From Puniceicoccales bacterium (GTDB lineage Bacteria > Verrucomicrobiota > Verrucomicrobiia > Opitutales > JAIRLG01), in assembly GCA_031288595.1 (NCBI GenBank), contig JAITRB010000016.1:60001-92000 (forward strand): a DNA stretch of 32,000 nucleotides, written 5' to 3'. The stretch's first letter is position 1. Each line of letters opens with the position of its first letter. Positions 2,115 through 28,543 of this stretch are shown here, piece after piece. Below the pieces are notes generated by a model. The model did no database searches and was not told the origin of the DNA. It worked only from the letters and a program-made list of their open reading frames with translations. The position numbers and the translations under genes are program-made.

Positions 2115-2203
2115 CCCCGCCGTCTTTGCCCCATGAAAATCTTGATTTTCATGGGGATGCCCGCTCCGCGGGCTGATCCCTTTGGGATCCAAAGACGGCG
2201 GGG
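2115..2203 (+). repeat. Four-way-junction (cloverleaf-like) intergenic repeat, copy A
   Basis: Outer stem: ccccgccgtctttg (2115-2128) pairs with caaagacggcgggg (2190-2203), 14 bp. Long arm: ccccatgaaaat/attttcatgggg (2129-2140/2145-2156), loop cttg. GC arm: gcccgc-tcc-gcgggc (2159-2173). Short arm: gatccc-ttt-gggatc (2175-2189). It lies between the divergent hppA and histidine kinase starts. Confidence 0.85.
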
Positions 2204-2436
2204 GCCAACGAGACCTCGGGCGGTGCGGGTAACAGTTCCCTTCCGGATTCCGGAAAAATGTCCGGATTCCATTGTAAAAAAAAAGTGTACTCTTGGAAAA
2301 ATTCGTACATTTTTAATGAAATGGCGCATTCTCCGCATCGAAGAACGCCATTTTCCTCGCTTAAACCATGAAAGATGCGTCGGAACCGGGCCGCCGCCGG
2401 GCCTGAGAAAAGGGCCTATTGGGCATCGGTATTGCC

Positions 2437-3624
2437 ATGCGCACCTATTCCCCTCTTATCCCGAACAGTTTAACCACAGGGTTCTGTGATGGAGTCTCCT
2501 CGGAGCGCTTTAAAGAGCTCCTTCCGATCCCCACCTTGCTCACGGATGCGCAGGGACGGATCCTCCAGGCCAACAGGGCAGCCCAGCATTTTCTCGGCTA
2601 TACGGGAAATTCTCTAGATGATCTGAAGCTGGAGCAGCTGGTCTTTCGATACGGAGTTCTGAAACGGACCCTGCAGCGCGAACCGAAAGCCACGGATAGC
2701 TGGAAATTGCCGCTGAAGTTCCGACATGCGCAGGGGCAGCTGTTGAGCACGGAAACGATGATCGTTCGGGAGAGTGCTCTAGAGGATGGGCGGATGGGCT
2801 TCTATATCTGGGATATGCGGGATATGCAGAAAAAAGCCAGGGCCCTGAAGGCAAAATGGCAGAGAGCGGAGCAGGCCAACCAGACCAAGAGCCTCTTCGT
2901 CAGCCTGATCTCCCACGAATTTCGCACGCCCATGGCCTCGATCCAGGCTGCAGCGGAACTCCTGAGAAATTACGGCGAGCGCTTCTCACCGGAAGAGCGC
3001 CAGGAGCAGCTGCGCCAGATCAGCGTCGATATCTTCCGCATGTCCCAGATGATGGACGATGTCCTGCTCCTGGGCAAAATACAGAACCAACAACTGAGCT
3101 TTAGAGCGACGCTCGTCGACCCGCTGACGCTTTGTCAGGACGCGATCCAGTTCGTCCAGCCCCGCGGTGGGCAATCCCGGGTCCTCATCATGGTCTCGGG
3201 AAAATTTCCTCCCATATGCTCCCTCGATCCTTCGCTCTTCCGCCACATCCTGATCAATCTGCTGAGCAATGCGCTGAAGTATTCCCCTCCGGACTCAAAG
3301 GTAACGCTGTCCCTGCGCCGCGACCGTCAGGACCTGATCCTGGAAGTGGTCGACAAGGGGATTGGGATTCCACCAGAAGATCATGGCAAGATATTTCATC
3401 TCTTCCATCGGGGAAACAATGTCGGGATGGTCAAGGGGATCGGCGTGGGGATGTTCATGCTGAAGTACTGCGTGGAGCTGCACCGCGGTAAGATCGCCTT
3501 CAAGTCGACGCTGGGAGTCGGGACGACATTTCAGGTGAGACTGCCGGTAGGCCTTCAGGGGAAGAAGGGAAAGAGCAGCCTCGCCGAGGAGACTCCCATC
3601 CACCCCGTCAACGTGCTCCGCTAG
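2437..3624 (+). CDS. Sensor histidine kinase (PAS + HisKA + HATPase_c), with no adjacent response regulator
   Basis: H-box SLISHEFRTPMASI, N-box INLLSNALKYSP, G1 DKGIGIPPED, G2 GIGVGMFMLKYCVELHRGKI. The N-terminus is PAS-like (LLTDAQGRILQANRAAQHFLGY). The track start at 2419 is a TTG. The first ATG is at 2437 (MRTYSP...), so the start is uncertain by 6 codons. Confidence 0.85.
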   Translation: MRTYSPLIPNSLTTGFCDGVSSERFKELLPIPTLLTDAQGRILQANRAAQHFLGYTGNSLDDLKLEQLVFRYGVLKRTLQREPKATDSWKLPLKFRHAQGQLLSTETMIVRESALEDGRMGFYIWDMRDMQKKARALKAKWQRAEQANQTKSLFVSLISHEFRTPMASIQAAAELLRNYGERFSPEERQEQLRQISVDIFRMSQMMDDVLLLGKIQNQQLSFRATLVDPLTLCQDAIQFVQPRGGQSRVLIMVSGKFPPICSLDPSLFRHILINLLSNALKYSPPDSKVTLSLRRDRQDLILEVVDKGIGIPPEDHGKIFHLFHRGNNVGMVKGIGVGMFMLKYCVELHRGKIAFKSTLGVGTTFQVRLPVGLQGKKGKSSLAEETPIHPVNVLR

Positions 3625-3662
3625 AGGAAGGAGAGGCTCGAGGGAGCGTAGGGACGAGGACT

Positions 3663-4061
3663 TCAGAGCCGACAGGCCAGGATTTCCAGCCAGGCAGCTG
3701 GTGGACGGACAGCACCGCCGCCCTTGCGGGCAAAGGCGTGGCGGGAACTGCCATCGAAGAGCCGCTGACCCTGGCGCTCGATGCGGTAAAAGATCTCCAC
3801 CCGCGAGCGGGGCATTTCTCGGATCACGGCCCAGACGGACAATCGGTCGTCGAAATGCGCCGAAGCGCGGTACTTGCCCTGCAGTTCGATCACGGGGAAA
3901 TGGAAACCCTCTGCTTGGACGCGGGTATAGGGATAGCCTATGGCTTCCATCAGTGCGAGGCGCGCCACCTCGCACCAGGCCCAGTAATGCGCGTGGTGCA
4001 CGACTCCCATCTGGTCCGTCTCAACGAAGCGCACCCGAATTTCGACACAGTGTTCGATCAC
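3663..4061 (-). CDS. Acyl-CoA thioesterase, 4HBT/YbgC family (hotdog fold)
   Basis: The N-terminus IRVRFVETDQMGVVHHAHYWAWCE matches the YbgC-type (V)RVxYxDTDxxGVVYHxxY motif, and the 132-aa size fits. The start codon is GTG (+ strand cac at 4059-4061). It is convergent with the histidine kinase. Confidence 0.8.
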   Translation of the reverse strand: MIEHCVEIRVRFVETDQMGVVHHAHYWAWCEVARLALMEAIGYPYTRVQAEGFHFPVIELQGKYRASAHFDDRLSVWAVIREMPRSRVEIFYRIERQGQRLFDGSSRHAFARKGGGAVRPPAAWLEILACRL

Positions 4062-4148
4062 GGATTCAGGACTGGAAAAATTTTTCCCTAGGGCAAGCTT
4101 TCATCTTTCGGTATGGGACTCGCGCGCTCCTCAATGAGCGCCTCAATC

Positions 4149-4295
4149 CCCTGCGCCGAGGAATTTCCTGTGTTTTCGAGAGAGAGGATGAAGGATTCAT
4201 GCTTTCTCCGTCGGCACTGGGCAGGCGAGCTTTTCAAAGACTTCCTTGAGCTCCTGCGTCGGGGAATTTCTCGTGTTTGTGAGAAAAGGTGAAGG
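4149..4295. repeat. Two diverged direct repeats of about 45 nt with a 104-nt period (decayed tandem duplication)
   Basis: R1 (4149-4194): cctgcgccgaggaatttcctgtgttttcgagagagaggatgaagg. R2 (4253-4295): cctgcgtcggggaatttctcgtgtttgtgagaaaaggtgaagg. By hand alignment they are roughly three quarters identical, with 3 nt of indels. Weaker similarity continues toward lower coordinates. Confidence 0.7.
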
Positions 4296-4314
4296 GGGTG
4301 TTCGCTCTTAAGTC

Positions 4315-5127
4315 CTATGGATTGGGGCTCGGCGCTCCGCCACCGGGTGGCTTACCCTTCCCAGAAGCTCCGGGCCCTCCAGAAATTCTGCCGGTGTCAG
4401 CTGGACTCTGCTTGGCTTGGGCAGTCGGCGCGTCGAAGGAATGGGCGTGTTTTTGGAGATAGATGAAGAGCTGTGTCTTATCTTCGAACTGAAAATGGAA
4501 CCCCTGAGGGCTTTCTCTCCTATTGCGGTTATTCACGACGGGCTGAAGCGTGAGGTCCCATTTGTCGCTGTCGAAGCTGTAGTAGGCGTAGCGGAAGTCG
4601 GTGCAATGGCGGAAGAGGGTGACTTTGCCGCTGGATTTCTCGCCCGAAGAGGCTTGGCTGGGCCTGCTGAAGGATCTGCCGGTTGAAGGCGAATTTTCCA
4701 GTTGGTAGTGCAAGCGCACCCGCCGTTTCTTCTCGTCGTACTCCAGGTGGTACTTGATGAATTTCCCATGCGGGTTGGCGATAAAGGGCGGCGTGCTGAA
4801 GTTCCACCAGTAGAGGCAATAGGCCCCCCATATTCCCGGATGCTCCTCGAAGTAGGGCTTTGCTGCCTGTGGGGGTAGGCTCTTCAAACGGGTGGTATAC
4901 ATCCCATCCAGGCGGATATAGGATTCCCGCAGGCTGTTCTCCAAAAACTTTTTCGCGACGACCACGCCTTCCTTTTCCCAGTCCGGTACGGCCTCCCGTT
5001 CCCAGAGCTCGACGAAGGTGGTCATCAGGGAGACTGAGGCTAGCAGAACGCTGCCGCTCAGCGCTAGGGCCAGCAGCATTTCGATCAGCGAGAAGGCGTT
5101 CCGTCTCACGGGAAGATTTTTATTCAC
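4315..5127 (-). CDS. Pseudopilin-like protein with a prepilin-type N-terminal cleavage/methylation domain
   Basis: The N-terminus VRRNAFSLIEMLLALALSGSVLLASV is the class-III signal/methylation motif (F-S-L-I-E-M-L plus a hydrophobic helix). The C-terminal tail is Gly/Pro-rich. The start codon is GTG at 5127, preceded by taaggaaat. No other secretion or pilus genes are adjacent. Confidence 0.7.
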   Translation of the reverse strand: MNKNLPVRRNAFSLIEMLLALALSGSVLLASVSLMTTFVELWEREAVPDWEKEGVVVAKKFLENSLRESYIRLDGMYTTRLKSLPPQAAKPYFEEHPGIWGAYCLYWWNFSTPPFIANPHGKFIKYHLEYDEKKRRVRLHYQLENSPSTGRSFSRPSQASSGEKSSGKVTLFRHCTDFRYAYYSFDSDKWDLTLQPVVNNRNRRESPQGFHFQFEDKTQLFIYLQKHAHSFDAPTAQAKQSPADTGRISGGPGASGKGKPPGGGAPSPNP

Positions 5128-5302
5128 ATTTCCTTAACTGTCAACGCAGCGCATCGCTGTGCTCGGCCACCGAAGCCAAGAAATCTCCATGGGCTCCCTC
5201 GAGGCTAAGCCTTCTGGATCTCCAATTTCCCCAGGGAACTTGGGGCCAGTGATCCTCTCCGAGGATAACAGTGGGGCTGGAGAGAGGTATTTGCGCTCGG
5301 CG

Positions 5303-5401
5303 GCCGCCTTTGGGGCCCTTCGGGCCCAGCCCGCCCTGCGGGCGGGCTCCGGGGCAGGACAATGAAAGAGATCTTTCATTGTCCTGCCCCGCAAAGGCGG
5401 C
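5303..5401 (-). repeat. Four-way-junction intergenic repeat, copy C (inverted orientation)
   Basis: Outer stem: gccgcctttg (5303-5312) / caaaggcggc (5392-5401). Short arm: gggccc-ttc-gggccc (5313-5327). GC arm: agcccgccc-tgc-gggcgggct (5328-5348), 9 bp. Long arm: cggggcaggacaatgaaaga/tctttcattgtcctgccccg (5350-5369/5372-5391), 20 bp. Confidence 0.85.
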
Positions 5402-5465
5402 ATGAGGAAATGCAGAAGCTCCGATCCCGCGAATCAGCCCTCGGGTCATCGAAGTTCACCAGGAG

Positions 5466-6158
5466 CTAGGGGAGCAGTTGCTCTATCGCTTCCCGGGCAG
5501 CAGCCTCCTGTGCGCGTTTCTTGGATGACGAGTGAGAACGACCGTAGAGCCTGCCATTGAGCCACAGCTCGACCTCAAAGAGCTTCTGCGGGGCCGCTCC
5601 CTCTTCCCTTACCAGTCGGTACTCGATGCTCCAGGTCGGGCTCTGACTCTGGGCATACTCCTGAATCCGTCCCTTGGGATTGTAGTCCCGCATGAGCGAT
5701 TCCAGATGGCTTCGGATGTCCCCTAAGCACTTCAGGATCACCCGTCTGGTCTTGGCGAATCCCGCTTCGAGAAAAATAGCCCCCACCAGAGCTTCGAGCA
5801 CATCCTCCACGGCGGAAGAGGCTAGGGGCCCACCGGAGGCCGCTTCGTCGAAATGTATCCATGGGCGCAATTCCATCTTTTCCGCCAACGCCGACAGGAA
5901 TTTCCCACTGGCCAATGCGCTCCTGTAAACCGTGAGCTCTCCCTCCGCCTTGTCCGGAAAGGTCCGAAAGAGTGCCTCTGCCAGAATGGCTGACAGAACC
6001 GCATCGCCCAAAAATTCCAGGCGCTCGTAGTTCTCCGTTGCCGAAACTGACGGGTGTGTCAGTGCTTTCTGCAAAAGCTCCTCCGACCTAAGGCGATAGC
6101 CAAAGATTTTCCCCAAAGCCTTCACCGGCGGAGACTCTTCTCCAGAAAACCCGCTCAT
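5466..6158 (-). CDS. rnc: Ribonuclease III
   Basis: RNase III signature ERLEFLGDAVL and a C-terminal dsRBD-like segment (PKGRIQEYAQS...KKRAQEAAAREA). 230 aa. Confidence 0.93.
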   Translation of the reverse strand: MSGFSGEESPPVKALGKIFGYRLRSEELLQKALTHPSVSATENYERLEFLGDAVLSAILAEALFRTFPDKAEGELTVYRSALASGKFLSALAEKMELRPWIHFDEAASGGPLASSAVEDVLEALVGAIFLEAGFAKTRRVILKCLGDIRSHLESLMRDYNPKGRIQEYAQSQSPTWSIEYRLVREEGAAPQKLFEVELWLNGRLYGRSHSSSKKRAQEAAAREAIEQLLP

Positions 6159-7147
6159 GAGCTTTTCGTTCCCAGGTAACTCCTGAGGGGATCCCGAATT
6201 GCCTTTCGGAAAAATCTCTCGATGCAGGACAGGCTATGCCACGGCGAGAATCCCCTCACTGGCTTCGTCCTCTTCGCCGCTTCTCGTAGGGCTTGAAACT
6301 TCTCTGCGAAGGGAGTTCGAAAGGCCGTTTGCCAGAAGAGGTGGGTCAAGTAGTAGCAATCCCAGCGCCGTGGCAGCTTTGGCCGGATGTTCTTCGGTAC
6401 ACGGGCCAGTTGCGCTTCCAGTTTTTCCGAAAAGGCCTTCCAGGGCTTTTGGTAGATGAAATGGACGATGCTCATCTCTTCCAAACTGCCCGAGGTCCTG
6501 TAGTCAAATCGATTCCAACGGGGCTGGAGCGGACAGAACTGCCCCTCGGCGAGGATATTCAGCGGGTCCTGTTCGGGAAAATCGAAGGGCCCCCTTGCCC
6601 GTATGAGGGCCACCAGGCGCTCCGTCAGCCCTTCGCTCCGCCATCGGATGGGCTCGATGAGCAGAACGCCCACGTTGAAGTAATCCGCATCTTGCGGCCG
6701 TCCCAGCCGGCGGTTGTGCCACCGCAGCGGACTAACGCCCCGTTCCGAGCGCGCCGCGAAGGCATGGCCTCCAAGTTCGGAATGGTAGAGTGACTCCCAT
6801 TCGCCCAGCACCAATGTGTCGCTGTCCAGGTAGAGGATGCGAGGGGACTCGGGTAGGATTTCCGGAAGGAATATCCGGGCATAAACCGCCGGACTGGGAT
6901 ATTTTTCCGTCACGGGCAATGAGCGAACGGCTTCCGGTAAGGAATGAAAGTGGAGCTTCAGGAAAGGGAAGTTCTTTTCCAACTGCTTCATTTTGAACTG
7001 GGAATTTTCCGAAATCGCGTCGTCCAGCACGTGCGCCTGCACTGGAACCCGGCCATGGTGATGCTCCATCAGCGACCAGAGCGCCACCGCCGTAAAGGGC
7101 ACATAGGCTTCATCACAGGCAAAGGCGACGTGTAGGATCTCTTCCAT
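6155..7147 (-). CDS. Glycosyltransferase family 8 (LPS/glycan alpha-glycosyltransferase-like)
   Basis: LHVAFACDEAYVPFTAVALWSL, RILYLDSDTLVLG (DxD) and YFNVGVLLI are typical GT8 blocks. Its stop overlaps the rnc start in ATGA (6155-6158), which indicates translational coupling. Confidence 0.8.
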   Translation of the reverse strand: MEEILHVAFACDEAYVPFTAVALWSLMEHHHGRVPVQAHVLDDAISENSQFKMKQLEKNFPFLKLHFHSLPEAVRSLPVTEKYPSPAVYARIFLPEILPESPRILYLDSDTLVLGEWESLYHSELGGHAFAARSERGVSPLRWHNRRLGRPQDADYFNVGVLLIEPIRWRSEGLTERLVALIRARGPFDFPEQDPLNILAEGQFCPLQPRWNRFDYRTSGSLEEMSIVHFIYQKPWKAFSEKLEAQLARVPKNIRPKLPRRWDCYYLTHLFWQTAFRTPFAEKFQALREAAKRTKPVRGFSPWHSLSCIERFFRKAIRDPLRSYLGTKSS

Positions 7148-7186
7148 GGACTAATATTTGGAGTCTTTCTGTGAATTGTGAGGGTT

Positions 7187-7273
7187 CCGCTGTCTTGGCC
7201 CCATGAAAATTTTTCTCATTTTCATGGGGATGCCCGCTGCGCGGGCGCTCCCTTTGGGAGCCAAAGATAGCGG
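7187..7273 (+). repeat. Four-way-junction intergenic repeat, copy B
   Basis: Outer stem: ccgctgtcttgg (7187-7198) / caaagatagcgg (7262-7273); 11 of 12 positions pair, with one G-T and one G-A. Long arm: ccccatgaaaat/attttcatgggg (7199-7210/7218-7229), loop ttttctc. GC arm: gcccgc-tgc-gcgggc (7232-7246). Short arm: gctccc-ttt-gggagc (7247-7261). Confidence 0.85.
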
Positions 7274-7345
7274 ATAGGAAGCCCTATGCCGGGCCAATTC
7301 CCCCTGTCTCCGAAGCCAATGTATGAAAAAATTTTTCAATGGGGT

Positions 7346-7873
7346 TTAGAGAAAGTGTTTGGAGAAAATTTCCTCCAATAGGCCTTCCAGGTCTCTCGCC
7401 TCTATGGGTTCCGGCAGCCAATCACGGAGGCGGCAGCAGTGGGAGCGGATGTCATCGGGATAGCGCTCAAGATCGCCGTTGACGTTGAGGCCCACCCCGC
7501 AGGCCGCCAGATGAACCTTTTCCGATACCACCCGGGTTTCCGTCAGGATCCCGCCGAGCTTGCGCCCCTGGATCATCAGGTCATTGGGGTACTTGAGCGC
7601 TACGGGTACCTGATGGCGCTCCCGCAGCGCCTGGCTGAGAAGAATGGCCACTTTGGTAGAGCAGTGCCGAAAGTCCTGTGCGACCTGCCGGGGCTGCCAG
7701 AGGATCGTCCAGTAGAGATTGCCTGGGTCGTCGCTGTACCAGCTGTGATCCCCCCGTCCCCGACCTGCGAACTGCCGCGACGCGACGACGACGAAGGGCG
7801 GAGCCTTTTCAGCACTCAGGCGAAAGGCCTCGTCATTCGTGCTATCGACCACATCCCGGCGCAGGGTTTCCAT
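7346..7873 (-). CDS. birA: Biotin--protein ligase, catalytic core only (unusually short, 175 aa)
   Basis: DSTNDEA, FAGRGRGDHSWYSDDPGNLYWTILW (the GRGRxGRxW-type biotin loop) and KYPNDLMIQGRKLGGILTE (KWPND block). I scanned the same frame upstream to the stop at 8060-8062 and found no ATG, GTG or TTG, so 7873 is the start. Confidence 0.8.
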   Translation of the reverse strand: METLRRDVVDSTNDEAFRLSAEKAPPFVVVASRQFAGRGRGDHSWYSDDPGNLYWTILWQPRQVAQDFRHCSTKVAILLSQALRERHQVPVALKYPNDLMIQGRKLGGILTETRVVSEKVHLAACGVGLNVNGDLERYPDDIRSHCCRLRDWLPEPIEARDLEGLLEEIFSKHFL

Positions 7874-7886
7874 GGGAAATTCTCTT

Positions 7887-8105
7887 CTAAAAAATGTCGA
7901 AGATGAGCATCGCGAATCCCTGGAGCAGCGCGGTTCCCAGGAGCAGGTAGAGGGCGAGCCGGTCGCAGAGGCTCTGGCTTCCCCCTCGCTGTTCCGCCCG
8001 ACGGCAGGAGGATGCGAGGATCCTCGACGAGCGCCGCTGCAGCGACCCGCGGTAGCGATTCAGAAGATGCGTCAGGTCTTTCGGACTGAGAGGATCGCGG
8101 CCCAT
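7887..8105 (-). CDS. Hypothetical small protein with a C-terminal hydrophobic helix (72 aa)
   Basis: It ends 14 nt upstream of the birA start on the same strand. Third codon positions are strongly G/C-rich, as in the neighbouring genes. C-terminus: LALYLLLGTALLQGFAMLIFDIF. I recognise no family, and it competes with overlapping ORFs in other frames. Confidence 0.35.
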   Translation of the reverse strand: MGRDPLSPKDLTHLLNRYRGSLQRRSSRILASSCRRAEQRGGSQSLCDRLALYLLLGTALLQGFAMLIFDIF

Positions 8106-8312: not shown

Positions 8313-8413
<101 letters not shown>

Positions 8414-8644
8414 CTTTCCCTCTTTCGACTTTCGGCCTAGATGGAATTTCTGGAGGGAAGAAAGGTGCGGACCGGCTCTCTAAAACTTCCGCCTTAGGCT
8501 TTTTTCGGTGGAGTTTTGAGCCTGAGTGTTCCGAAAAGGAGCTTTTCCCCTTCCATACCAGATTCCGGCTTGAGGGGATTGTTTGGCTCCGAATGAAGGG
8601 AAAGCGTCCCTGCAGAAGTTTGGATTTTTCCAGGGCGGTTCTGT

Positions 8645-8773
8645 CCGCTGCCTTTGGATTCCGGAGGAATCGCCCGCGAAGCGAGCCCCAGAGCAGAAGA
8701 GGAAAAATTTCCCTATGGAGGCAGAGGGGCTGAGAGTCTTTATTTTTCCTCTTCTGCTCTGCAAAGGCAGCGG
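8645..8773 (-). repeat. Four-way-junction intergenic repeat, copy D (inverted orientation)
   Basis: Outer stem: ccgctgcctttg (8645-8656) / caaaggcagcgg (8762-8773). Short arm: gattcc-gga-ggaatc (8657-8671). GC arm: gcccgc-gaa-gcgagc (8672-8686), one mismatch. Long arm: cagagcagaagaggaaaaat/atttttcctcttctgctctg (8689-8708/8742-8761), 20 bp with a 33-nt loop. Confidence 0.85.
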
Positions 8774-8886
8774 CGAGTATCCGCAAAAGCATTTGTCTTT
8801 CCCGAAAACAGAAACCCCATCCTGATTCCTGTAAACGGTCCCTTTCCCAAGAAAGTTCCCGAAGCTACGGGAATGGGAGCAGCTCC

Positions 8887-9309: not shown

Positions 9310-9320
9310 AGAATTTGAAC

Positions 9321-10414: not shown

Positions 10415-12253
10415 ATGGGAGATTCACCGCAGATTACTCGCTCTACCGGGCTTGCACCGCTTGGGCCAAGTGAAGGGATCCAAGGCCGTCCTTCGATTGC
10501 GCTCTTAAAGAGAGATCGACAGGTCTCTCTTTCGGCGGAACAGCAACCCAGTATCCCGGTGCAGCCACTTAGCCTCAGGTCTCATCCCCAGAATCGTAGG
10601 CAGAATGAGGGATTGGATGCCATAGGGGAAACATTGACTGGGGCGAGCGCTACTGGCGATCTTCAGAACTTACGCGATCGACTGGATGAGGCTCGGAAAA
10701 AATGGCAGTCCGGTGGAGCTGATTCTTTTGCCGAACTGGCCGAAGTGCTCGCGGATATTGCTTCAACTTTGGCGCAATCCCCAGCGGGATTGGATGGGAA
10801 AACCTCGCAGGCGATCTTGGATCTTTTGTATGGGGATATCGATCCATCGGCGAAAGATTCGCCTCTTTCGCCGGAAGAGTTTCGCAGTTGTGTGAACGCT
10901 TTGGCTCAGCTGGTGGGTGAAGTGAAGGCCATTATAGGAGAATCCCATCCTGTGCTGGATCTATTTCATTTTTCTCCCCAAGAAGGCCGTGAAGTGGCCG
11001 TTGTTTTCAGGAATAGTGATGGGGAACTGATGGCCCTGCAAGGCGAGGGAACAGGCGATGGAATCCAAGTCGAGGGAAAAGCAGAGCGACTGGCAGATTT
11101 CGTCACCAAGCATGCTGATGTTGATATCCCATTATTAGTTGTTCCCCGAGAGATCGTTTCAGGAGATTCCCTAGAAACAGATGCCGAGCTTAGGGCAAGT
11201 GCAGCGAGCACAGATCGAGAGATGCTGAACCTTAAAATTAGAGGCAGTGTATATACTGTTCCCGCGGGAGCTCTTCAGGGGACAGATGTGGAGTATGCCC
11301 GAGAGGCGATAGAGAGAGGTTTGAAGTCTTTGCAGAAGATCATGGCTGGCAATCCTGATGAGTTACGGAAAAATTCTCCCATTCATTCACGTCAGGACAT
11401 GGCGGATCTTATGTGGGCATTGGATGCAGAAGCCTGGAAGATCAGTCCCAGATACCAGGCTAGCGGGAGTGCGATGTATGTGTCCGATGCGGAGAATAAA
11501 ATATACGCGGCCCTATTGGGAGCGAAAGATGGAGAAGGGAAACCGTTTGCCTATTTCCGTGGAGGGAAGAACGACAGCTCTCATCTGCAGCCTTTTCCAA
11601 ACAGCAAAGCCTCGCAGTATGGATTCAATGCCTATGAGGATGGAGCATCGGCAACGGACCCGAGGGAGGTCAAGTTGCCCTATGGGAAAAATACGCTGTT
11701 ATTCGGTAAATTGGAAAAGACTGAGAGCGGTTTTGGCAAAAATCGAAGCTTTATAAAGCTTGAAAGCTACGGGACAGACAGCCGAGGGACGGGTATCAAG
11801 GCCCGCTGGAATTCCTTTAAGAATCTGTTATGCCACGGTTTGGAATGGTTCACAAAGTGCCTCTGTGGTATCGATTCCTCTACTAGGGAAAGTAATTTCA
11901 CAGAGAAGACGACCTCTATTCACAGAGCGGTCTCTTCCTTCTGCGAAGAGCATGGCAATGGAGTCGAGGGTGATTTCTGGAATGGCCTAAAATCAGCTGC
12001 CGAGCGCGGTTTAACTGCATTGGCTCAGCATGTCGAAAAACTCAAGGCAATGGATCTCCCCCCAAAGCAAGCTGCGTTCCTCATGGAACTCGAGGGAAGC
12101 ATCAATCGCCAACTTGAAGGGAGCATTTTAAAAGAGCATCAACTAGAAACCCTAGAAGAATGGCAGTCGAGCGGGGAGGGGGATGGACAATCGGCGTTAG
12201 CCTATTTCGCCAGGCACGATCAATCCGGAAGGGAGATCATTTTGGATCTATGA
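10415..12253 (+). CDS. Hypothetical protein, 612 aa, no recognisable domain; compositionally atypical
   Basis: A single long ORF with no competing frame. The first 100 aa or so are Ser/Pro/Gln-rich with no hydrophobic signal peptide. It contains an internal short duplication (LFGKLEKTESGFG / SFIKLESYGTDSRG). It uses rare-looking codons (tta, aga, ata). Hand-counted lines are far less GC-rich than the flanks (22/60 at 11701-11760 and 29/60 at 11221-11280, against 38/60 in dnaE at 13501-13560). Confidence 0.75.
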   Translation: MGDSPQITRSTGLAPLGPSEGIQGRPSIALLKRDRQVSLSAEQQPSIPVQPLSLRSHPQNRRQNEGLDAIGETLTGASATGDLQNLRDRLDEARKKWQSGGADSFAELAEVLADIASTLAQSPAGLDGKTSQAILDLLYGDIDPSAKDSPLSPEEFRSCVNALAQLVGEVKAIIGESHPVLDLFHFSPQEGREVAVVFRNSDGELMALQGEGTGDGIQVEGKAERLADFVTKHADVDIPLLVVPREIVSGDSLETDAELRASAASTDREMLNLKIRGSVYTVPAGALQGTDVEYAREAIERGLKSLQKIMAGNPDELRKNSPIHSRQDMADLMWALDAEAWKISPRYQASGSAMYVSDAENKIYAALLGAKDGEGKPFAYFRGGKNDSSHLQPFPNSKASQYGFNAYEDGASATDPREVKLPYGKNTLLFGKLEKTESGFGKNRSFIKLESYGTDSRGTGIKARWNSFKNLLCHGLEWFTKCLCGIDSSTRESNFTEKTTSIHRAVSSFCEEHGNGVEGDFWNGLKSAAERGLTALAQHVEKLKAMDLPPKQAAFLMELEGSINRQLEGSILKEHQLETLEEWQSSGEGDGQSALAYFARHDQSGREIILDL

Positions 12254-16080: not shown

Positions 16081-16170
16081 AGCTGGCTTTGCCCCAGGCC
16101 GCTGGCACAGCCATCGGCCTGGGGCGGCCCGCGCAGCGGGCAGCGATTCTGAAAGAATCGAAAGCCAGCT
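16081..16170 (+). repeat. Four-way-junction intergenic repeat, copy E
   Basis: Outer stem: agctggcttt (16081-16090) / aaagccagct (16161-16170). Long arm: ccccaggccg/cggcctgggg (16092-16101/16115-16124), 13-nt loop. GC arm: gcccgc-gca-gcgggc (16127-16141). Short arm: gattct-gaa-agaatc (16145-16159). Confidence 0.85.
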
Positions 16171-16385: not shown

Positions 16386-16452
16386 GCCCCCATGAAAAGG
16401 GTGAGCTCCCATTTTTTATACGTGTTCATGGGGCTTTGGATCCCGAAGGGAT
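16386..16452 (+). repeat. Degenerate or partial relative of the repeat family (copy I)
   Basis: gcccccatgaa (16386-16396) pairs with ttcatggggc (16425-16434), with one bulge. This is the same ccccatgaa arm as in copies A and B. It is followed directly by tttg and by gatccc-gaa-gggat (16439-16452). No GC arm or convincing outer stem is present. Confidence 0.55.
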
Positions 16453-17864: not shown

Positions 17865-17969
17865 GTCCTGCCGCCTTTACGCCCTTGGCCAGGAAGGGCT
17901 TGCCCTTCCTGGCCAAGGGCGCCGCCCGCGCAGCGGGCGGGAACCTTTCAGGTTCAAAGGCGGCAGGAC
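17865..17969 (+). repeat. Four-way-junction intergenic repeat, copy F
   Basis: Outer stem: gtcctgccgccttt (17865-17878) / aaaggcggcaggac (17956-17969), 14 bp. Long arm: gcccttggccaggaaggg/cccttcctggccaagggc (17881-17898/17903-17920), loop cttg. GC arm: ccgcccgc-gca-gcgggcgg (17922-17940). Short arm: gaacct-ttc-aggttc (17941-17955). Confidence 0.85.
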
Positions 17970-21379: not shown

Positions 21380-21409
21380 AAGACCCGAAATGGGCGGAAT
21401 GCAGAGCCC

Positions 21410-22480: not shown

Positions 22481-22531
22481 GGGAAATTCGCGGGTGCCGG
22501 TGTGGACGATGAAGGCGTCTCGTCAAAACTG

Positions 22532-23269
22532 TCAAAGGCTATTTTGTCTCACATACTTGGAACAGAAGCTGGCCAGGTGTTGGCCGAGCTGCTCCGTGGC
22601 TTTCTCCAGGGCGCTTACAAGCTCTTCCCACGCAGTTTCCTGTTTCGAAGCGATATCCACCTTTTCATCCAGGGCGAAGGAATAGCTGCATTCTGGGGTC
22701 AGGCGGATGCGAGAAGCCCTGTCCTTCCCTTTCAGGCCCATCGATACTTCTCCCCGAGTGACGACCCTCTGCTGTGCTAAATCCAACTTCAGCTCTTCGA
22801 GGGACAGTTTTACTCTGAGCGTCTGGGAGAGGATGGGGGATTCTTGTCCCTCGCCCTTGCCTGAATCCGCTACAACGGGATCGGCAAGTGTCTGTCGGTA
22901 TGCTTCCGCCACGGCCCTCCGGAGCTGGGGTCGGACGATACGGGCGATTCCTTCCTCGACCGGTTCGGCCCAGCGATGGAATTCGTCGAATTCCATCTCA
23001 TGTCCAGAACGCTGCCGCATGAGCTGAGGTTTTCGGAGATAGTTGGGCAGGGAAATGACCTGAAAATCGACCGCGATGGCCTCGGCTTTCAAAGCTGGGG
23101 AATCCTCCTGTCCCTGAACTTCTTCCTGGGATTTTTCCGGATAGTGGGCGATGCCGAGGGCGTAGAATTGCGACCTATCCCGAACAGGAGTTACGAGGCA
23201 GCCGGAGAGGAGGGTGGAGAGGAGGCCCAAGAGGCCGAGGCGCGGCGAGAGGCTGTTAAAGGGCTTCAT
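22532..23269 (-). CDS. Lipoprotein, ABC-type transport auxiliary component (PqiC/YmbA-like)
   Basis: Lipobox LLSTLLSGC, followed by RSQFYALG as in the DUF330/PqiC family. It lies directly downstream of an MCE gene, with a 30-nt gap. Confidence 0.55.
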   Translation of the reverse strand: MKPFNSLSPRLGLLGLLSTLLSGCLVTPVRDRSQFYALGIAHYPEKSQEEVQGQEDSPALKAEAIAVDFQVISLPNYLRKPQLMRQRSGHEMEFDEFHRWAEPVEEGIARIVRPQLRRAVAEAYRQTLADPVVADSGKGEGQESPILSQTLRVKLSLEELKLDLAQQRVVTRGEVSMGLKGKDRASRIRLTPECSYSFALDEKVDIASKQETAWEELVSALEKATEQLGQHLASFCSKYVRQNSL

Positions 23270-23299
23270 GACGAAAAGTTTCTAGGACTGTTAAAATTT

Positions 23300-24334
23300 C
23301 TAGGGCTGTTTCCCTGCCAAAATGGCATTGGGATTGCGCTCGAAGTAGTCGATGAGAGACTGCAGCTGGCAGATCATGTCGGAGACATGCTTTAGGGTGC
23401 GGACGAATTCCCGCTGCAGGGGCATGTCTTCGTCGCAGAGGGAGGCAACACCGCTTCGAATTTCTTCTATCAGGCCGAAAATCTGTGCCGCGATCCGCCG
23501 GAAATCGTCCTTCAGCTCCGGAAAGAGGGCATTCAGCATCTTGAAAGCCTGGGAGCTCTGGACAAAGGTATCTCGCAGGGCAACCAGTCCTTGCTGCAGC
23601 GCCTCCGAGCGGACGAGCTCGGTGGCAGAACGGGAAAATTCGCGGAAGGATTGCGCCATCTGCGTGATCGCCTCCATGTCCGTCCCCTGAATTTTCTCGT
23701 CGAGGTGCTGGATACAGTCCTCTACGTGCTCCAGCAAGAGCGGTAGGTTGATGTGGGATACCTGGCGCAGGAAGCGGTCGATGTCGGAGTAGACCGTGGG
23801 GATTTGCGGCCATTTTTTCTCGCCGCTGGCCTGAGGAATTGGGATCAGCTGGCGGACACGCTGACTGTCGTAGTAGTCCAGTTCGATAAAAAGCTTGCCC
23901 GTCAGAAAGCTCTCCGTGCCCAGCTTGGCCGACAGACCCTTGGCGATTTGTTCCTGATAGAAATGGATCGTCTGGGCTGTGGAAGCTTTGGCTACCAGCA
24001 CGCCGTCGTGCGGGTGATGCGCCTCGTGGGCCTCGCCATAGTCCAGGAAGTCGGAATCTATCTTGATGGTGATGGGGGTTTTGACCGTCGATTGCTCCGC
24101 ATCGTAGCTGATGGAGATCTTTTCGACGGAACCGATGCGGACCCCGCGGAATTTTACGGGGGCACCGACCTCCAGCCCGTTGAGAGAGGTGTCGAAGCAG
24201 AGGACGAGGAAGGAATCATCTCCGCTGCTCCTCAATCCCGTCGACAGAAAGACCAAGGCTCCCAGGAAGAGACCGAGCGCCAGCAGAAAGAAAAAGCCGA
24301 TCAGGGCGGCGGTGGAGGCTCGGGCGTGACTCAT
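23300..24334 (-). CDS. mlaD: MCE-domain protein (MlaD/PqiB family) with a long C-terminal helical region
   Basis: One N-terminal TM helix (ALIGFFFLLALGLFLGALVFL). The MCE core is LNGLEVGAPVKFRGVRIGSVEKISISYD. The C-terminus reads ERNPNAILAGKQP. Its start overlaps the mlaF stop in ATGA (24331-24334). Confidence 0.8.
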   Translation of the reverse strand: MSHARASTAALIGFFFLLALGLFLGALVFLSTGLRSSGDDSFLVLCFDTSLNGLEVGAPVKFRGVRIGSVEKISISYDAEQSTVKTPITIKIDSDFLDYGEAHEAHHPHDGVLVAKASTAQTIHFYQEQIAKGLSAKLGTESFLTGKLFIELDYYDSQRVRQLIPIPQASGEKKWPQIPTVYSDIDRFLRQVSHINLPLLLEHVEDCIQHLDEKIQGTDMEAITQMAQSFREFSRSATELVRSEALQQGLVALRDTFVQSSQAFKMLNALFPELKDDFRRIAAQIFGLIEEIRSGVASLCDEDMPLQREFVRTLKHVSDMICQLQSLIDYFERNPNAILAGKQP

Positions 24335-25152
24335 CTCTGGTGAATAGGGGCGCCATCAGAGTGAAAACGCAGGAATTGGCGAATTTTTTCTTGCGGGGCG
24401 TGCTCGCGCAGCTCACGGGCGGGCCCATCGGCCAGAACGGACTGTGTCTCGGCATCCAGAAAGAGCACGCGGCCGTTGATCTTGAAAATGCTCTCCAGAT
24501 CATGGGTTACGATGACGAGGGTTGTCCCGAAGCTCCGGTTGACATTGAGGATCAGCTCATCGAGGTGGCGGGCGCTGATGGGGTCGAGGCCAGCCGAGGG
24601 CTCGTCGAAGAAAAGGATGCGGGGGTCGAGGGCCATCGCCCGAGCCAGTCCGGCCAATTTGCGCATGCCGCCCGAGATTTCCGATGGATAGAGGTGCTGG
24701 CTCTTCTCCAGACCCACTAGGGCGAGCTTCAGGGAGACGATGTCGGCGATGGTGTCCGGAGGGAGGGAAGTGTGCCTTTGGAGAGGCAGAGCCACGTTTT
24801 CGGCCAGGCTCATGTCGCTCCACAGGGCGCCGCCCTGGAAGAGAACACCGAACTGCTGGACCATTTGCTCGTGCTGAGGCCCATCGGCCAAGGCGAAGTC
24901 AATGCCCTGGTAGAAAATATGCCCCGCTTCGCTCGGCAGAAGCCCGATCAGATAGCGCAGCAACGTGCTTTTCCCGCAACCGCTTCCGCCGATGATGAGG
25001 CAGATTTCTCCGGCCTGCAGCTCGAAGGAGATGTGGCGCATGACGACGCGTTCCCCGTAGCGGGTCTCCAGGTCTTTCACCTGCAGAAAGGGAAGCGTGT
25101 GTGCTGGAGTTCTCTCTTCCGCCTTGGACATGCGGTGGCCCAGTGAGGACAA
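24331..25152 (-). CDS. mlaF: ABC transporter ATP-binding protein, MlaF-like
   Basis: Walker A GGSGCGKST, signature ISGGMRKLAGLARAMALDP and Walker B ILFFDEPSAGLDP. It is coupled to the MCE gene. Confidence 0.85.
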   Translation of the reverse strand: MSSLGHRMSKAEERTPAHTLPFLQVKDLETRYGERVVMRHISFELQAGEICLIIGGSGCGKSTLLRYLIGLLPSEAGHIFYQGIDFALADGPQHEQMVQQFGVLFQGGALWSDMSLAENVALPLQRHTSLPPDTIADIVSLKLALVGLEKSQHLYPSEISGGMRKLAGLARAMALDPRILFFDEPSAGLDPISARHLDELILNVNRSFGTTLVIVTHDLESIFKINGRVLFLDAETQSVLADGPARELREHAPQEKIRQFLRFHSDGAPIHQR

Positions 25153-25223
25153 AAAAGCTCTGATTTCAAACCAAAGCTTTTAGGAGATGAGCCGGTATCC
25201 GAGTTCCGATGGAGGAGATCTCG

Positions 25224-25323
25224 GGGCTTGGCTGTCTTTGGATCCCAAAGGGATCGGCCCGCGAAGCGGGCCGCAATAGGGGAAAGGAAAGGCCTTTCCC
25301 CTATTGCAAAGACAGCCAAGCCC
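25224..25323 (-). repeat. Four-way-junction intergenic repeat, copy G (inverted orientation)
   Basis: Outer stem: gggcttggctgtctttg (25224-25240) / caaagacagccaagccc (25307-25323), 17 bp. Short arm: gatccc-aaa-gggatc (25241-25255). GC arm: ggcccgc-gaa-gcgggcc (25256-25272). Long arm: caataggggaaagg/cctttcccctattg (25274-25287/25293-25306). Confidence 0.85.
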
Positions 25324-25443
25324 TACACCATTCCCGCGATGACAGCCTCAAGCTGGTGGCTTCAGGCTTGTTCCCTCTTTGCCAAGAGAGGGAGACCCTC
25401 TAGGGCCTTACCGGAATGTGCAGAAATTTCCAGGGGCCGATTT

Positions 25444-26784
25444 TCACCCGACGATTTTTCCCAAGAGCACCGCGGGACTAGCGGATTCGATGCGCACGGA
25501 GATGAACTGTCCGATGAGCTCCTCGTGACCGTCGAAGATGATCTTATGGAAGCCAGGATTACGGCCCCAGAAGCGACCTTCTCCGCGGTGAGCCCTGCCT
25601 TCGACCAGCACCGATTGGGTCGTTCCGACAAGCTGTCGCTTGTGCCGCAGCGAATGCTTTTCAAGCGCTCGGAGGAGAATCTGCTGGCGCTTGGCCTTGG
25701 TCTCTTCGGGAATTTGTTCCGGACTCAGGGCAGCCGCAGTGCCGCTCCGCGGGCTATAGCGGAAGATAAAGGCCATATCGAAGGAGATTTTTTCGAAAAA
25801 ATCGAGCGTTTCGCCAAAATCCTCCTCGCTCTCGCCCGGAAAGCCGACGATGAGGTCGGTCGACAGGGCTAGGTCCGGTACCTTCTCCTGCAGCCGGGAA
25901 ACGAGCTGCTGGAACTGCTCGCGGGTGTAGAGCCGTCCCATGGCCTTCAGGATGCGGTCGGAGGCACTCTGGAGCGGCAGATGGACGTGAGGACAGAGCT
26001 TGGAGAGGCGCCCGAAGCAGGCGATGAGGTCATGGCCGAAGTCCTTAGGGTGGGAGGATAGAAAACGGATGCGCTGGAGTCCGTCGAGGGACTGGAGCTT
26101 TTCCAGCAGTTGGACGAAGGGACTTTGGCCGTCGATGACCGGAAGAACGCCGTAGCCGTAGCGATTGACGATTTGGCCCAGCAGCGTGACCTCTTGGATC
26201 CCGTGAGAGAGGAGCTGTCGGATTTCGTCCAAAATTGCCTCCATGGGCCGGTGGCGCTCGCGGCCACGGGTTTGAGGAACGATGCAGTAGCGGCAGCGCA
26301 GGTTACAGCCCTGCATAATCGACACGAAGGCGGAGGCCTGCCTGGGCTTCAGCTCATGAGGAAAATTTTGACCGGATAGGCTTTCTTCTCTTCCGACATC
26401 GACGAGGGGCGTCGAAGGTTTATCCCCTGGATTGCCGAAGTATCGGTCGAGGTAATCCGCGACCTGGGACAGTTTCTCAGTCCCGAGGATGAAATCGATT
26501 TCAGGCCTCTGCCGGAGCAACTCCGATCCCAGGCGTTGGGCCATGCAACCGAGAATGCCCAGAACTGTGCCGCGCCGCCTCTTCTGCGCCCGGAGAAGGC
26601 CTAATTTCCCCAGCGCTTTGGCCTCCGCCTGTTCCCGCACGCTGCAGGTGTTGAGGAGAATGACATCGGCCCCGGAGGCGTCTTCGGTGAGGGCATAGCC
26701 GCGGGACTGGAGCAGGGCGCGCAGCGCCTCGCTGTCGCGCTCGTTGGTCTGGCAACCGTAGGTCCTGACGAAAACCCGCTTCAT
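25444..26784 (-). CDS. miaB: tRNA-i6A37 methylthiotransferase MiaB (radical SAM)
   Basis: UPF0004 domain VFVRTYGCQTNERDSE...NTCSVRE, radical-SAM cluster motif CNLRCRYC and a C-terminal TRAM domain. The start is placed at the ATG at 26784 (MKRVFVRTYGCQ), 7 nt after the lysS stop. The track start at 26838 would overlap lysS by 47 nt. Confidence 0.9.
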   Translation of the reverse strand: MKRVFVRTYGCQTNERDSEALRALLQSRGYALTEDASGADVILLNTCSVREQAEAKALGKLGLLRAQKRRRGTVLGILGCMAQRLGSELLRQRPEIDFILGTEKLSQVADYLDRYFGNPGDKPSTPLVDVGREESLSGQNFPHELKPRQASAFVSIMQGCNLRCRYCIVPQTRGRERHRPMEAILDEIRQLLSHGIQEVTLLGQIVNRYGYGVLPVIDGQSPFVQLLEKLQSLDGLQRIRFLSSHPKDFGHDLIACFGRLSKLCPHVHLPLQSASDRILKAMGRLYTREQFQQLVSRLQEKVPDLALSTDLIVGFPGESEEDFGETLDFFEKISFDMAFIFRYSPRSGTAAALSPEQIPEETKAKRQQILLRALEKHSLRHKRQLVGTTQSVLVEGRAHRGEGRFWGRNPGFHKIIFDGHEELIGQFISVRIESASPAVLLGKIVG

Positions 26785-26791
26785 GGGTAGT

Positions 26792-28303
26792 TTAGCCGGA
26801 ATGGCCGAGGGGGCGCATGGGAGGGAAGAGGATGACATCGCGGATGCTCTCGGCCTCCGTCAGCAAGGCGGCCAGTCGGTCGATGCCGATACCCATGCCG
26901 CCGGCCGGAGGCATGCCGTGTTCCAGCGCCAGGAGAAAATCATGATCCAGATTTTGCTTCTCCTCGCCGACCTGGGCCTCGAAGAGCTGGCGCTGTAGCA
27001 GGGGATCGTTCTGCTCCGAATAGGCCGGAGCGATTTCCTGACCGTTGATGCAGAGCTCGAAGACGTCGAGGACGGAAGGATCTTCTTCATTCAGCTTGGC
27101 CAATGGGCAGAGCTCTCGGGGGAGATGCGTCACGAAGGTTGGCTGGAGGAGCGTGGGCTCGATCCGTTTACTGTAGACCGCCTGGGTGATCTCGAAATCT
27201 CTCTCCTGGCCGGAGAGCTCGATGCCATTTTCGGTACAGAACTGGGCCTTCTCTTCCCTTGTTCTGGAAAACCACTGTGGGTCACAGGTGCTCTGGCAGA
27301 CGAGCTCGCGGTAGCTGAATTCCTGCCATGGGCCGCCCAGCTCGATCTCGGTGCCGTCGGGTCGGCTTAGCTGCATCCGCCCCAGAATTTCCCGGCTGAG
27401 GTGCTGGATGAGAGCGCGGATGAGTTCCATCATGCCGCGGTAGTCGCTATAGGCCTGGTAGAGCTCCAGCATCGTGAACTCCGGATGGTGCTTGCGGGAA
27501 AGGCCTTCGTTGCGGAAGATGCGCCCGATTTCGAACACGCGGTCGAAGCCGGCCACCAGCAGGCGCTTGAGGTAGAGTTCCAGCGAGATGCGCAGGTAGA
27601 AGTCGCAGTCGAGGGCATTCATGTGCGTCGTGAAGGGTCGGGCGGCGGCGCCACCGGCGATGTTCTGCAGCACCGGTGTTTCCACCTCCCTGAAATCCCT
27701 AGCCCACAGGAATTGCCGGATGAGCCTGAGCATCTCGGTGCGCCGGATGGCCCGTTCCCGGGAACGAGGGTCGGCGATGAGGTCCAGATAGCGCTGGCGG
27801 CAAATCTGGTCCTCATTGACCAGGCCGTGCCACTTTTCCGGCAGGGGCCGTAGGGCCTTGGCCAAGAGCTTGAGGGCGGTGGCCCGAAGGGTGATCTCTC
27901 CAGTCTTGGTCCGGAAGAGATTTCCCTTTACGCCGACGAAATCCCCTAGGTCGTATTTTTTGAAATCCTGATAGTTCTCCTTACCGACGGTCTGTTCGGC
28001 GACGTAGACCTGGAGGCTGCCGTTCCGGTCGAGGAGCTTGATGAAACTGGCCCGGCCCATCAGCCGAAATACGGTGATCCGTCCGGCCAGCGAGACCTCC
28101 GTCTCCTCGGCTGAGCCGCCCGAGCCTTCTTCCTTTTCGAAGATTTTCAGGGCTTCTTGGCTACTGTGGGACGCTTCCCAGTTCTGGCGATAGGGGTCTT
28201 TCCCCTCCTGCCGCAGAACTCCCAACTTTGCCTTGCGGGTGGCGAAGAGGTCGTGGCTGATCGCGTGGAGAGAGGCATCGGATTCAGTATCGCTCATGGC
28301 CAT
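26792..28303 (-). CDS. lysS: Lysine--tRNA ligase, class II
   Basis: OB anticodon-binding domain (VSLAGRITVFRLMGRASFIKLLDRNGSLQVY), motif 2 FRNEGLSRKHHPEFTMLELYQAY and motif 3 GMGIGIDRL. The track start at 28657 adds about 118 Arg/Pro-rich residues that read through repeat copy H. Plausible starts are the ATGs at 28303, 28297 or 28333. Confidence 0.93.
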   Translation of the reverse strand: MAMSDTESDASLHAISHDLFATRKAKLGVLRQEGKDPYRQNWEASHSSQEALKIFEKEEGSGGSAEETEVSLAGRITVFRLMGRASFIKLLDRNGSLQVYVAEQTVGKENYQDFKKYDLGDFVGVKGNLFRTKTGEITLRATALKLLAKALRPLPEKWHGLVNEDQICRQRYLDLIADPRSRERAIRRTEMLRLIRQFLWARDFREVETPVLQNIAGGAAARPFTTHMNALDCDFYLRISLELYLKRLLVAGFDRVFEIGRIFRNEGLSRKHHPEFTMLELYQAYSDYRGMMELIRALIQHLSREILGRMQLSRPDGTEIELGGPWQEFSYRELVCQSTCDPQWFSRTREEKAQFCTENGIELSGQERDFEITQAVYSKRIEPTLLQPTFVTHLPRELCPLAKLNEEDPSVLDVFELCINGQEIAPAYSEQNDPLLQRQLFEAQVGEEKQNLDHDFLLALEHGMPPAGGMGIGIDRLAALLTEAESIRDVILFPPMRPLGHSG

Positions 28304-28433
28304 GCTTTGAATGGGAGGATTGGACGGAATCATACGGCCTTGTAAATGGGAAAACACGGTGAGTTTGGGATAAATGAGCCTCTTGTCTATTTCCCGACGC
28401 CATTCGCTCGAGGATCTTGCGGGTTGTTGGGGA

Positions 28434-28543
28434 TTCCGCCGCCTTTGAAGCCCCGAAGGGGCTCTGGCCCGCGGCGCGGGCCGCGGGCCGCGCGGAATGG
28501 CGAGGCGTTTACGCCTCGCCACTCCGCGCCAAAGGCGGCGGAA
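28434..28543 (-). repeat. Four-way-junction intergenic repeat, copy H (inverted orientation)
   Basis: Outer stem: ttccgccgcctttg (28434-28447) / caaaggcggcggaa (28530-28543), 14 bp. Short arm: agcccc-gaa-ggggct (28449-28463). GC arm: ggcccgc-ggc-gcgggcc (28466-28482), followed by a duplicated half-arm gcgggcc (28483-28489). Long arm: gcgcgga...tccgcgc (28490-28496/28523-28529), enclosing tggcgaggcg-ttta-cgcctcgcca (28498-28521). Confidence 0.85.

Follow-up and report, generated by a model that had tools for sequence, protein, structure and literature searches.

What are the folded elements that recur between the genes of a 32,000-nucleotide stretch of DNA from a Puniceicoccales bacterium (Verrucomicrobiota; Opitutales; assembly GCA_031288595.1, contig JAITRB010000016.1, positions 60,001 to 92,000, hereafter the window)? 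An original prediction, made from the letters alone, described eight copies of an outer stem that encloses three hairpins, a long arm, a GC arm and a short arm, and suggested either a mobile element of repetitive extragenic palindromic (REP) type or of MITE type (miniature transposable element with inverted repeats) or a structured module acting as insulator, terminator or processing site. As described below, the element is multicopy, strictly intergenic and found in either orientation, its subfamilies recur at different loci, and its occupancy differs between species. With a probability of about 0.6, we read the copies as non-autonomous, structure-dependent selfish DNA of the REP/REPIN-bcr1-MITE kind with a cloverleaf architecture of its own, not as a gene or a regulatory RNA.

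Eight copies in the intergenic DNA of the window

All eight copies were confirmed where they had been predicted. They measure 87–129 nt each, have four helices meeting at a junction and amount to about one copy per 4 kb (eight in the 32 kb window). RNA and single-stranded DNA (ssDNA) folding agree on the outer stem with three hairpins: RNA fold energies range from −53 to −100 kcal/mol and ssDNA z-scores from −7.2 to −12.3, and for every copy 0 of 200 dinucleotide shuffles fold as well. The GC arm, GCCCGC-N3-GCGGGC with at most one mismatch, occurs eight times in the window, once per copy, versus 0.32 occurrences expected. The copies and a related fragment are as follows, with the score of a covariance model (CM) that is described thereafter.

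Copy A, 2115–2203, + strand: between two + strand genes; helix order outer stem, long arm, GC arm, short arm, outer stem; z = −10.8; CM 82.9 bits.
Copy C, 5303–5401, − strand: 65 nt downstream of the stop of the RNase III gene; GC arm lengthened to 9 bp; z = −11.8; CM 73.7 bits.
Copy B, 7187–7273, + strand: outside the CM seed and recovered at 67.1 bits; long arm shared with A, CTTTG missing 1 nt, outer stem with one G.T pair; z = −7.2.
Copy D, 8645–8773, − strand: between the signal recognition particle (SRP) RNA gene and rpsI; 33-nt insertion at the long-arm apex, GC arm with a T.G pair; z = −8.1; partial CM match of 34.8 bits.
Copy E, 16081–16170, + strand: 210 nt upstream of the dnaE start; junction pair re-partnered (GAAAG; 7-bp short arm); z = −8.2; CM 72.6 bits.
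Copy F, 17865–17969, + strand: in the divergent gap between gspF and ffh; outside the CM seed and recovered at 55.8 bits; z = −12.3.
Copy G, 25224–25323, − strand: between the start of an ABC ATPase gene and the stop of miaB; outer stem of 17 bp; z = −11.1; CM 83 bits.
Copy H, 28434–28543, − strand: in the divergent gap between lysS and dUTPase_2; outside the CM seed and recovered at 40.7 bits; 7-nt duplication in the GC arm, one G.T pair in the long arm; z = −11.0.
Rearranged fragment, 16386–16452, strand not assigned: recognised by sequence and fold; no CM match at E ≤ 10.

The CM seed comprised seven copies with their long arms trimmed, of which the window supplied five and a relative two; copies were first set in a common orientation (C, D, G and H reversed), and filters were switched off for the scan. 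All eight window copies are recovered, seven of them full-length at 41–83 bits and D in part, including the three outside the seed (B at 67, F at 56 and H at 41 bits). The assigned orientation scores higher than the opposite one by 26–47 bits for six copies and by 8 bits for H, while D is reported on that strand only. Beyond the eight copies the CM finds nothing in the window at E < 1, and no coding sequence is matched. Unrelated DNA of bacteria and viruses (715 kb), much of it picked because part of the motif matches, scores 27 bits at best. A metagenome scan with the pattern GCCCGCNNNGCGGGC-N14-20-CAAAGRCRGC returned 52 loci, all of them chance matches: none has the short arm, each shows two or more mismatches on the 5' side of the outer stem, and none scores above 27 bits. 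Two loci from a scan of viral contigs do not belong to the family either, and plasmid and phage collections gave no match to the element.

Intergenic DNA makes up 16% of the window by the curated gene map, and all eight copies lie inside this fraction (P about 5e-7), which bears out the statement that none sits in a supported coding sequence. They in turn fill 16% of the intergenic DNA. For six of the eight, a stop codon lies 65–350 nt upstream in the same gap between genes; F and H occupy divergent gaps. Orientation is split evenly, with A, B, E and F on the + strand and C, D, G and H on the − strand. Where the direction of transcription across a gap is defined, about five copies are sense and six antisense; together with the strand scores of the CM, this supports the predicted 4:4 orientation independent of transcription.

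Anatomy of the element

The outer stem contains a 10-bp core, GCYGYCTTTG...CAAAGRCRGC, whose conservation is about equal to that of the GC arm. Two Y:R positions of this core covary as C-G or T-A, and besides them only the outermost extension does so, its sequence being CCCC/GGGG, GTCCT/AGGAC, GGGCTTG/CAAGCCC or TTCC/GGAA where it is not missing altogether. The claim that outer stems differ yet still pair is therefore true of the extensions and the two Y:R positions, but not of the core. Likewise, the GC arm is nearly invariant within the window as had been noted, but it is not the only such part, and a copy from a sister species (L083a) carries GTCCGC/GCGGAC in its place. The GC arm is always central and faces the outer stem. 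Since it and the outer-stem core have the same sequence on either strand, the two orientations of the element differ only in the sides on which the long and the short arm stand. Junction linkers comprise 0–3 nt in most copies, and in the subfamily of E the innermost outer pair is re-partnered with the junction remaining fully paired.

The long arms form palindromes, perfect or nearly so, that reach 20 bp and in many cases leave only 2 nt at the centre. They had been taken as unrelated between most copies, which we have to revise: A, B and the fragment at 16386 have one long arm in common, ATGAAA(R) is present in six long arms, and the 5' strand near the apex is purine-rich in most copies. The fragment, listed before as a degenerate relative, is indeed built of related parts, but it is better described as rearranged, as an A/B-type long arm between AAAG/CTTT is followed by a GATCCC-GAA-GGGAT short arm, and a GC arm is missing.

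The apex of the long arm is also a hotspot for unrelated insertions. They amount to 33 nt in D (8677–8741), about 30 nt in the fragment (16399–16432) and 57 nt in L083b, a second copy from the same sister-species locus (L083 about 955–1011).

Pairing and covariation

Pairing was counted in two hand-built, N-padded alignments of 10 and 14 copies with every helix in register, the larger one consisting of the eight window copies and six from relatives. Letters are present on both sides in 412 cells of the smaller and 558 cells of the larger alignment, and 99.0% and 98.7% of these, respectively, hold standard pairs. In a control in which the 3' partner was slid by 1–3 columns, pairing fell to 41–51% and 40–50%. 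Both sides have changed in 106 and 145 cells, and such double changes are seen in all four helices, whereas wobble cells of the G.U type number only three and five (<1%). The short arm is Watson-Crick paired in 84 of 84 cells and shows nine sequences over the 14 copies; the seven sequences reported for the eight window copies are all perfectly paired. Compensated changes extend to the relatives, in the GC arm (GTCCGC/GCGGAC), at the junction (CTTTTG/AAAAG or CTTCG/GAAG) and in the core, where a G-C pair has become A-T. These compensated and double-sided changes agree with the view that the family is not a recently amplified simple repeat. Changes on a single side are all transitions and, in the common orientation, five of six leave G.T and not C.A, which are too few to indicate a strand preference.

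The earlier proposal of selection on a folded structure holds insofar as pairing is constrained in all four helices; template-switch correction within hairpins, however, would offer a rival route to the same complementarity. Near-perfect covariation with hardly any wobble can arise in DNA palindromes, and covariation alone is therefore no evidence for a functional RNA. We regard it as very unlikely that the copies form a strand-specific structured RNA family (small RNA or cis-regulatory) whose helices are kept by classical RNA covariation. The covariation statistics are strong, and the excess of G.T over C.A among the single-sided transitions would point the same way, although it is not significant. 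Far more wobble pairs than the <1% of 558 cells would be expected of RNA families, and near-perfect palindromes with 2-nt centres would not be favoured by any RNA loop. Rfam, searched at the gathering threshold and at E ≤ 10, assigned no family to the element; the only credible match in the window is the SRP RNA, and hits overlapping the copies were to miRNA models (E = 1.5–8.8), far below gathering scores. Promoter-like sites were not found inside the copies. Moreover, the conserved motifs are strand-symmetric, the copies stand in both orientations relative to flanking genes, and eight of them per 32 kb lie beside unrelated housekeeping genes. The sense-to-antisense ratio and the scarcity of wobble speak against a strand-specific RNA role.

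Site occupancy in related species

Searches with the Ffh and DnaE proteins yielded a handful of close relatives, whose loci were fetched by exact-protein look-up. Loci L075, L076 and L083 belong to a sister species (Ffh 91%, DnaE 94%), L077, L084 and L085 to two species with about 80% DnaE and 69% Ffh identity, and L079 to a relative at 75% Ffh. The exact-protein look-up for other strains retrieved only same-strain contigs (L001 and L080), and for one window protein it gave no entry. Among the species representatives of the genome collection, the closest has an Ffh with no more than 51% identity and is element-free, so the source lineage is a poorly sampled verrucomicrobial one. The family occurs solely in a small clade of uncultured Puniceicoccales known from metagenome-assembled genomes (MAGs).

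Occupancy differs between the window and its sister species. In L075, full copies are located in the gap between ffh and the SBP gene and in that between ABC_trans_aux and MlaD, and the window is empty at both, the latter gap measuring only 30 bp there. One of these copies (L075 6084–6179) is of the same subfamily as E. Upstream of dnaE, where the window has E, the sister species carries two copies of other subfamilies and an extra gene. F alone among the window copies has an orthologue that can be detected in the sister species and is the one old copy that both share: its 3' half at L075 88–152, where the contig ends inside the element, is 91% identical and includes uncompensated changes. The F site is filled in the window and the sister species and empty in the 69% relatives. 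Of the two sister-species copies upstream of dnaE, L083b (L083 867–1043) is a complete C-type copy, at a different locus from C, with outer stem, long-arm base and short arm identical to those of C; long-arm variants are therefore propagated lineages and are not made anew at each site. In L084, copies stand upstream of dnaE and downstream of rnc, both of a lineage-specific subfamily with the short arm GAGCCC, in an orientation opposite to that of C and with bulged, decaying long arms. Across species, these two sites thus hold different subfamilies in opposite orientations. No element was found in L077 (11 kb of syntenic sequence), L085, L079 or L002, the locus of the 51% relative. The distribution over these loci is that of an element subject to gain and loss and not that of a fixed functional site.

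One of the sites differing between L075 and the window deserves mention on its own. Compared with window 23250–23300, L075 6050–6310 contains an extra block of about 210 bp, made up of the 96-bp element and 115 bp of unrelated sequence, with the edges TTTCTGGGG and ATTCTAGGG. The empty site in the window shows TTTCTAGG twice, 9 nt apart, and this doubling could be a duplication or a deletion endpoint.

The occupancy data bear most directly on the idea that the copies serve the host as an orientation-independent DNA or RNA structural module whose pairing is kept by selection, be it as protector of mRNA 3' ends, insulator of transcription or supercoiling, RNase III substrate or nucleoid-protein site, as proposed for REP/BIME sequences of E. 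coli. The position of six of the eight copies shortly downstream of a stop codon would suit such a role, as would the maintained pairing in all helices and the fact that F is better conserved between the window and the sister species than the intergenic DNA around it. Stacked on the outer stem, the long arm would give a helix of more than 22 bp, sufficient for RNase III, and one account (PMC4550694) reports REPs to be transcribed and bound by nucleoid proteins. However, closely related species differ in which housekeeping loci are occupied, and hence no locus relies on its own copy; L077 does without copies in 11 kb of syntenic sequence, two window copies lie in divergent promoter gaps, and the ratio of about 5:6 shows no link to transcription. 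The terminator role suggested in the original prediction is not borne out, as 0 of 8 copies are called as intrinsic terminators and a T-run follows none of them. The adjacency of C to rnc looks like a coincidence, given that the L084 copy at that place is of another subfamily and in the opposite orientation. We therefore think a host module rather unlikely as the explanation for the family, although a host role is compatible with a mobile, selfish origin.

Alternatively, the copies might be relics that are neither mobile nor selected for their fold today, with complementarity of purely mutational origin (template-switch correction of quasi-palindromes or gene conversion within hairpins) and with spread or loss by recombination and deletion. 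Wobble intermediates are nearly absent, and perfect 20-bp palindromes of differing sequence exist side by side, just as this explanation would have it; insertions cluster at the long-arm apices, and the GC arm of L083b resembles a freshly templated 3' arm next to a decayed old one. The commonest loops are, in addition, mutual reverse complements. In the common orientation of the 14 copies, TGC (4) and GCA (3) lead among the GC-arm loops, while GAA (5 copies) and TTC (2) are among the commonest short-arm loops. With identical loops treated as shared ancestry, though, this signal of loop inversion is not significant (P = 0.17 and 0.35). Neither the recurrence of identical subfamily copies at separate loci of different species nor the sequence core that all copies retain would be explained, and old copies accumulate mismatches that are left uncorrected. 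We thus judge this scenario to be quite improbable.

Comparison with known repeat classes

The element resembles the REP and REPIN sequences mobilised by RAYT/TnpA-REP HUH transposases in being short, GC-rich, palindromic and extragenic, with a high copy number (eight per 32 kb), both orientations and no target-site duplication. Copy content likewise differs among relatives, and compensatory changes keep the hairpins (145 cells with both sides changed, 98.7% paired), as is common in REPINs (PMC3116915). The verrucomicrobium Opitutus terrae has been reported as REP-rich (PMC3733652). A classical REP, however, is a single imperfect hairpin of 20–40 nt with a GTAG/CGTC end tag, and a REPIN combines two inverted REPs in one long hairpin, whereas every copy here is an untagged four-helix junction of 87–129 nt. 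GTAG/CTAC is present in two of 14 copies at unrelated positions, and CGTC/GACG has no fixed position; in copy A, it is produced by the outer-stem variant with Y = T.

The bcr1 element of the Bacillus cereus group is a further interspersed intergenic repeat of this kind. At about 155 bp, it keeps a 'cruciform-like' structure through compensatory base changes and is distributed differently between strains (PMC3184786), which parallels the present family. It differs from the latter in its 5-bp flanking direct repeats and its description as a transcribed RNA element, and the two share neither sequence nor phylum. Flanking direct repeats of the window copies have a mean length of 3.5 nt, compared with 3.65 nt (standard deviation 1.06) at random window positions, and hence do not exceed chance.

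MITEs such as Correia/NEMIS, Nezha and Chunjie are small, non-coding, intergenic and multicopy as well, and their terminal inverted repeats (TIRs) have a counterpart in the outer stem. The MITE class is marked by conserved TIR tips and by a target-site duplication that a DDE transposase makes. In our element, conservation is the other way round: the inner 10 bp are kept, the outermost stem bases vary, and the duplication is missing, so a DDE-type MITE was rejected on both counts.

Of the remaining classes, an integron attC site does not apply, with R'' (RYYYAAC) and R' (GTTRRRY) boxes in 0 of 14 copies, and neither does a tRNA-like or tRNA-derived element, for which ARAGORN gave no match in the window. 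The earlier statement that the element is unlike REP, attC and tRNA finds support in the tag, box, ARAGORN and Rfam searches.

The inverted terminal repeats (ITRs) of parvoviruses such as adeno-associated virus (AAV) provide an analogy of form. There, an outer stem surrounds small GC-rich hairpins with 3-nt loops, flip and flop forms exist, and an HUH nuclease reads the folded DNA. The AAV ITR is three-way, T-shaped and placed at the ends of a linear viral genome, whereas our element is four-way, chromosomal and interspersed, and we know of no Rep-like gene for it. The CTTTG pentamer found in both is probably a coincidence. In the literature searched, we found no earlier description of a four-helix junction whose central GC arm is strand-symmetric.

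The same layout, with unrelated sequence, was noticed in a second element at L075 2391–2472. It has an outer stem CCGGCGA.../...TCGCCGG, a 10-bp arm, a central GC-rich arm of 9 bp with a 3-nt loop and a 7-bp AT arm, and scores 24 bits with the family CM. It may be a sister family with a common fold and, as a single example, hints that it is the fold and not the sequence that propagates.

Proposed mechanism and its weighing

Taken as selfish DNA, the element would spread in a folded single-stranded or extruded cruciform form that a putative enzyme encoded elsewhere in the genome recognises in trans. The surface that is recognised may consist of the core of the outer stem, which ends in CTTTG/CAAAG, together with the GC arm in the centre, GCCCGC/GCGGGC. 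Orientation would not matter, because these conserved parts read alike on both strands, and the variable long and short arms would need only to pair. Their complementarity could result from selection, in every round of spread, for copies able to fold, an argument also made for REPINs (PMC3116915), with template-switch correction within the hairpins probably assisting. Template switching within hairpins is an established mutational route by which an imperfect palindrome becomes a perfect one. The near absence of wobble, the 2-nt palindrome centres and the rearranged GC arm of L083b lean towards a process at the DNA level. Old resident copies would then decay slowly, a fate to which the F orthologue with its uncompensated changes and the bulged long arms in L084 would conform.

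A bolder version, to which we give little credence, would make the family a new class of mobile DNA in which a four-way DNA junction is itself the substrate of transposition. A putative junction-reading enzyme (HUH nuclease, resolvase-like protein or recombinase) would read core and GC arm, and hairpin-templated synthesis in each cycle would keep the side arms palindromic. On this view, the element at L075 2391–2472 would represent a sister family served by the same machinery.

Several points weigh against reading the copies as selfish DNA. The predicted mobility of REP or MITE type agrees with the occupancy differences between related species and with contigs that break inside copies, but the window contributes no mobilising enzyme, its genes being housekeeping genes only. 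Target-site duplications, sought in line with the original prediction, were not detected at the copies, nor was a conserved target motif. The 4:4 orientation, a small sample, gives no sign of the replication-strand bias typical of ssDNA transposition of the IS200/IS605 type. The alignments were fitted to the structure, and counts for the long arm mostly restate the palindrome of each copy. Data on the clade amount to about 70 kb with 14 copies in all. Filled and empty sites stem from species about 13% diverged, so that boundaries are blurred and gain is indistinguishable from loss; no insertion or excision is resolved to the base pair, as sequence outside genes has diverged too far between the window and L075, and L077 and L084 are only 79% identical.

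Genes of the window and further observations

The window has a G+C content of 57% and the gene content of an ordinary bacterial housekeeping region. Domain searches identified the genes listed here, and no transposase, recombinase or Y1_Tnp domain among the window genes; ARAGORN found no tRNA or tmRNA gene.

Window genes by domain search: histidine kinase, RNase III, lipoate-protein ligase, rpsI/rplM and HIT protein.
Further window genes: dnaE, gspF, ffh, Mla-type ABC system, miaB, lysS, dimeric dUTPase and SIS/CBS protein.
5466–6158, − strand: RNase III gene (Ribonuclease_3 and dsrm domains), stop 65 nt from copy C.
8315–8414, + strand: bacterial small SRP RNA gene (Rfam RF00169, 58.8 bits, E = 1.2e-10).

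The SRP RNA gene lies 231 nt from copy D, and an open reading frame (ORF) at 8352–8792 that overlaps both is spurious. The protein of 612 aa encoded at 10415–12253 (+ strand) has no Pfam or NCBIfam match. Its homologues in L077 (600 aa) and L084 (586 aa) lie in the same synteny, in the interval from the HIT gene to dnaE, which makes it a conserved hypothetical protein specific to the clade and without relation to the repeats.

The extra gene upstream of dnaE in the sister species (L083 52–780, + strand) encodes 242 aa, has no counterpart in the window and no Pfam hit, and adjoins two copies. Its product ends in ...CSF and resembles an outer-membrane beta-barrel protein. ORFs of 66–83 aa without a Pfam hit were called by public gene callers across or beside elements at L001 1401–1601 and 1634–1837 and at L075 1835–2086; they are probably spurious proteins created by the repeats. 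Breaks inside copies are seen in contigs of independent assemblies in two cases, in F for L075 and in D for the same-strain Logan contig L080 (window about 8658). The first 90 nt of L075 resemble low-quality, G/C-rich assembly debris.

Implications

Copies of the element fragment MAG assemblies of this clade and generate spurious small ORF calls. If the copies are selfish DNA as we propose, these bacteria would harbour a dense repeat family with perhaps hundreds of copies per genome, as extrapolated from one copy per 4 kb, and the strand-symmetric conserved parts would provide a handle for finding a structure-specific DNA enzyme.

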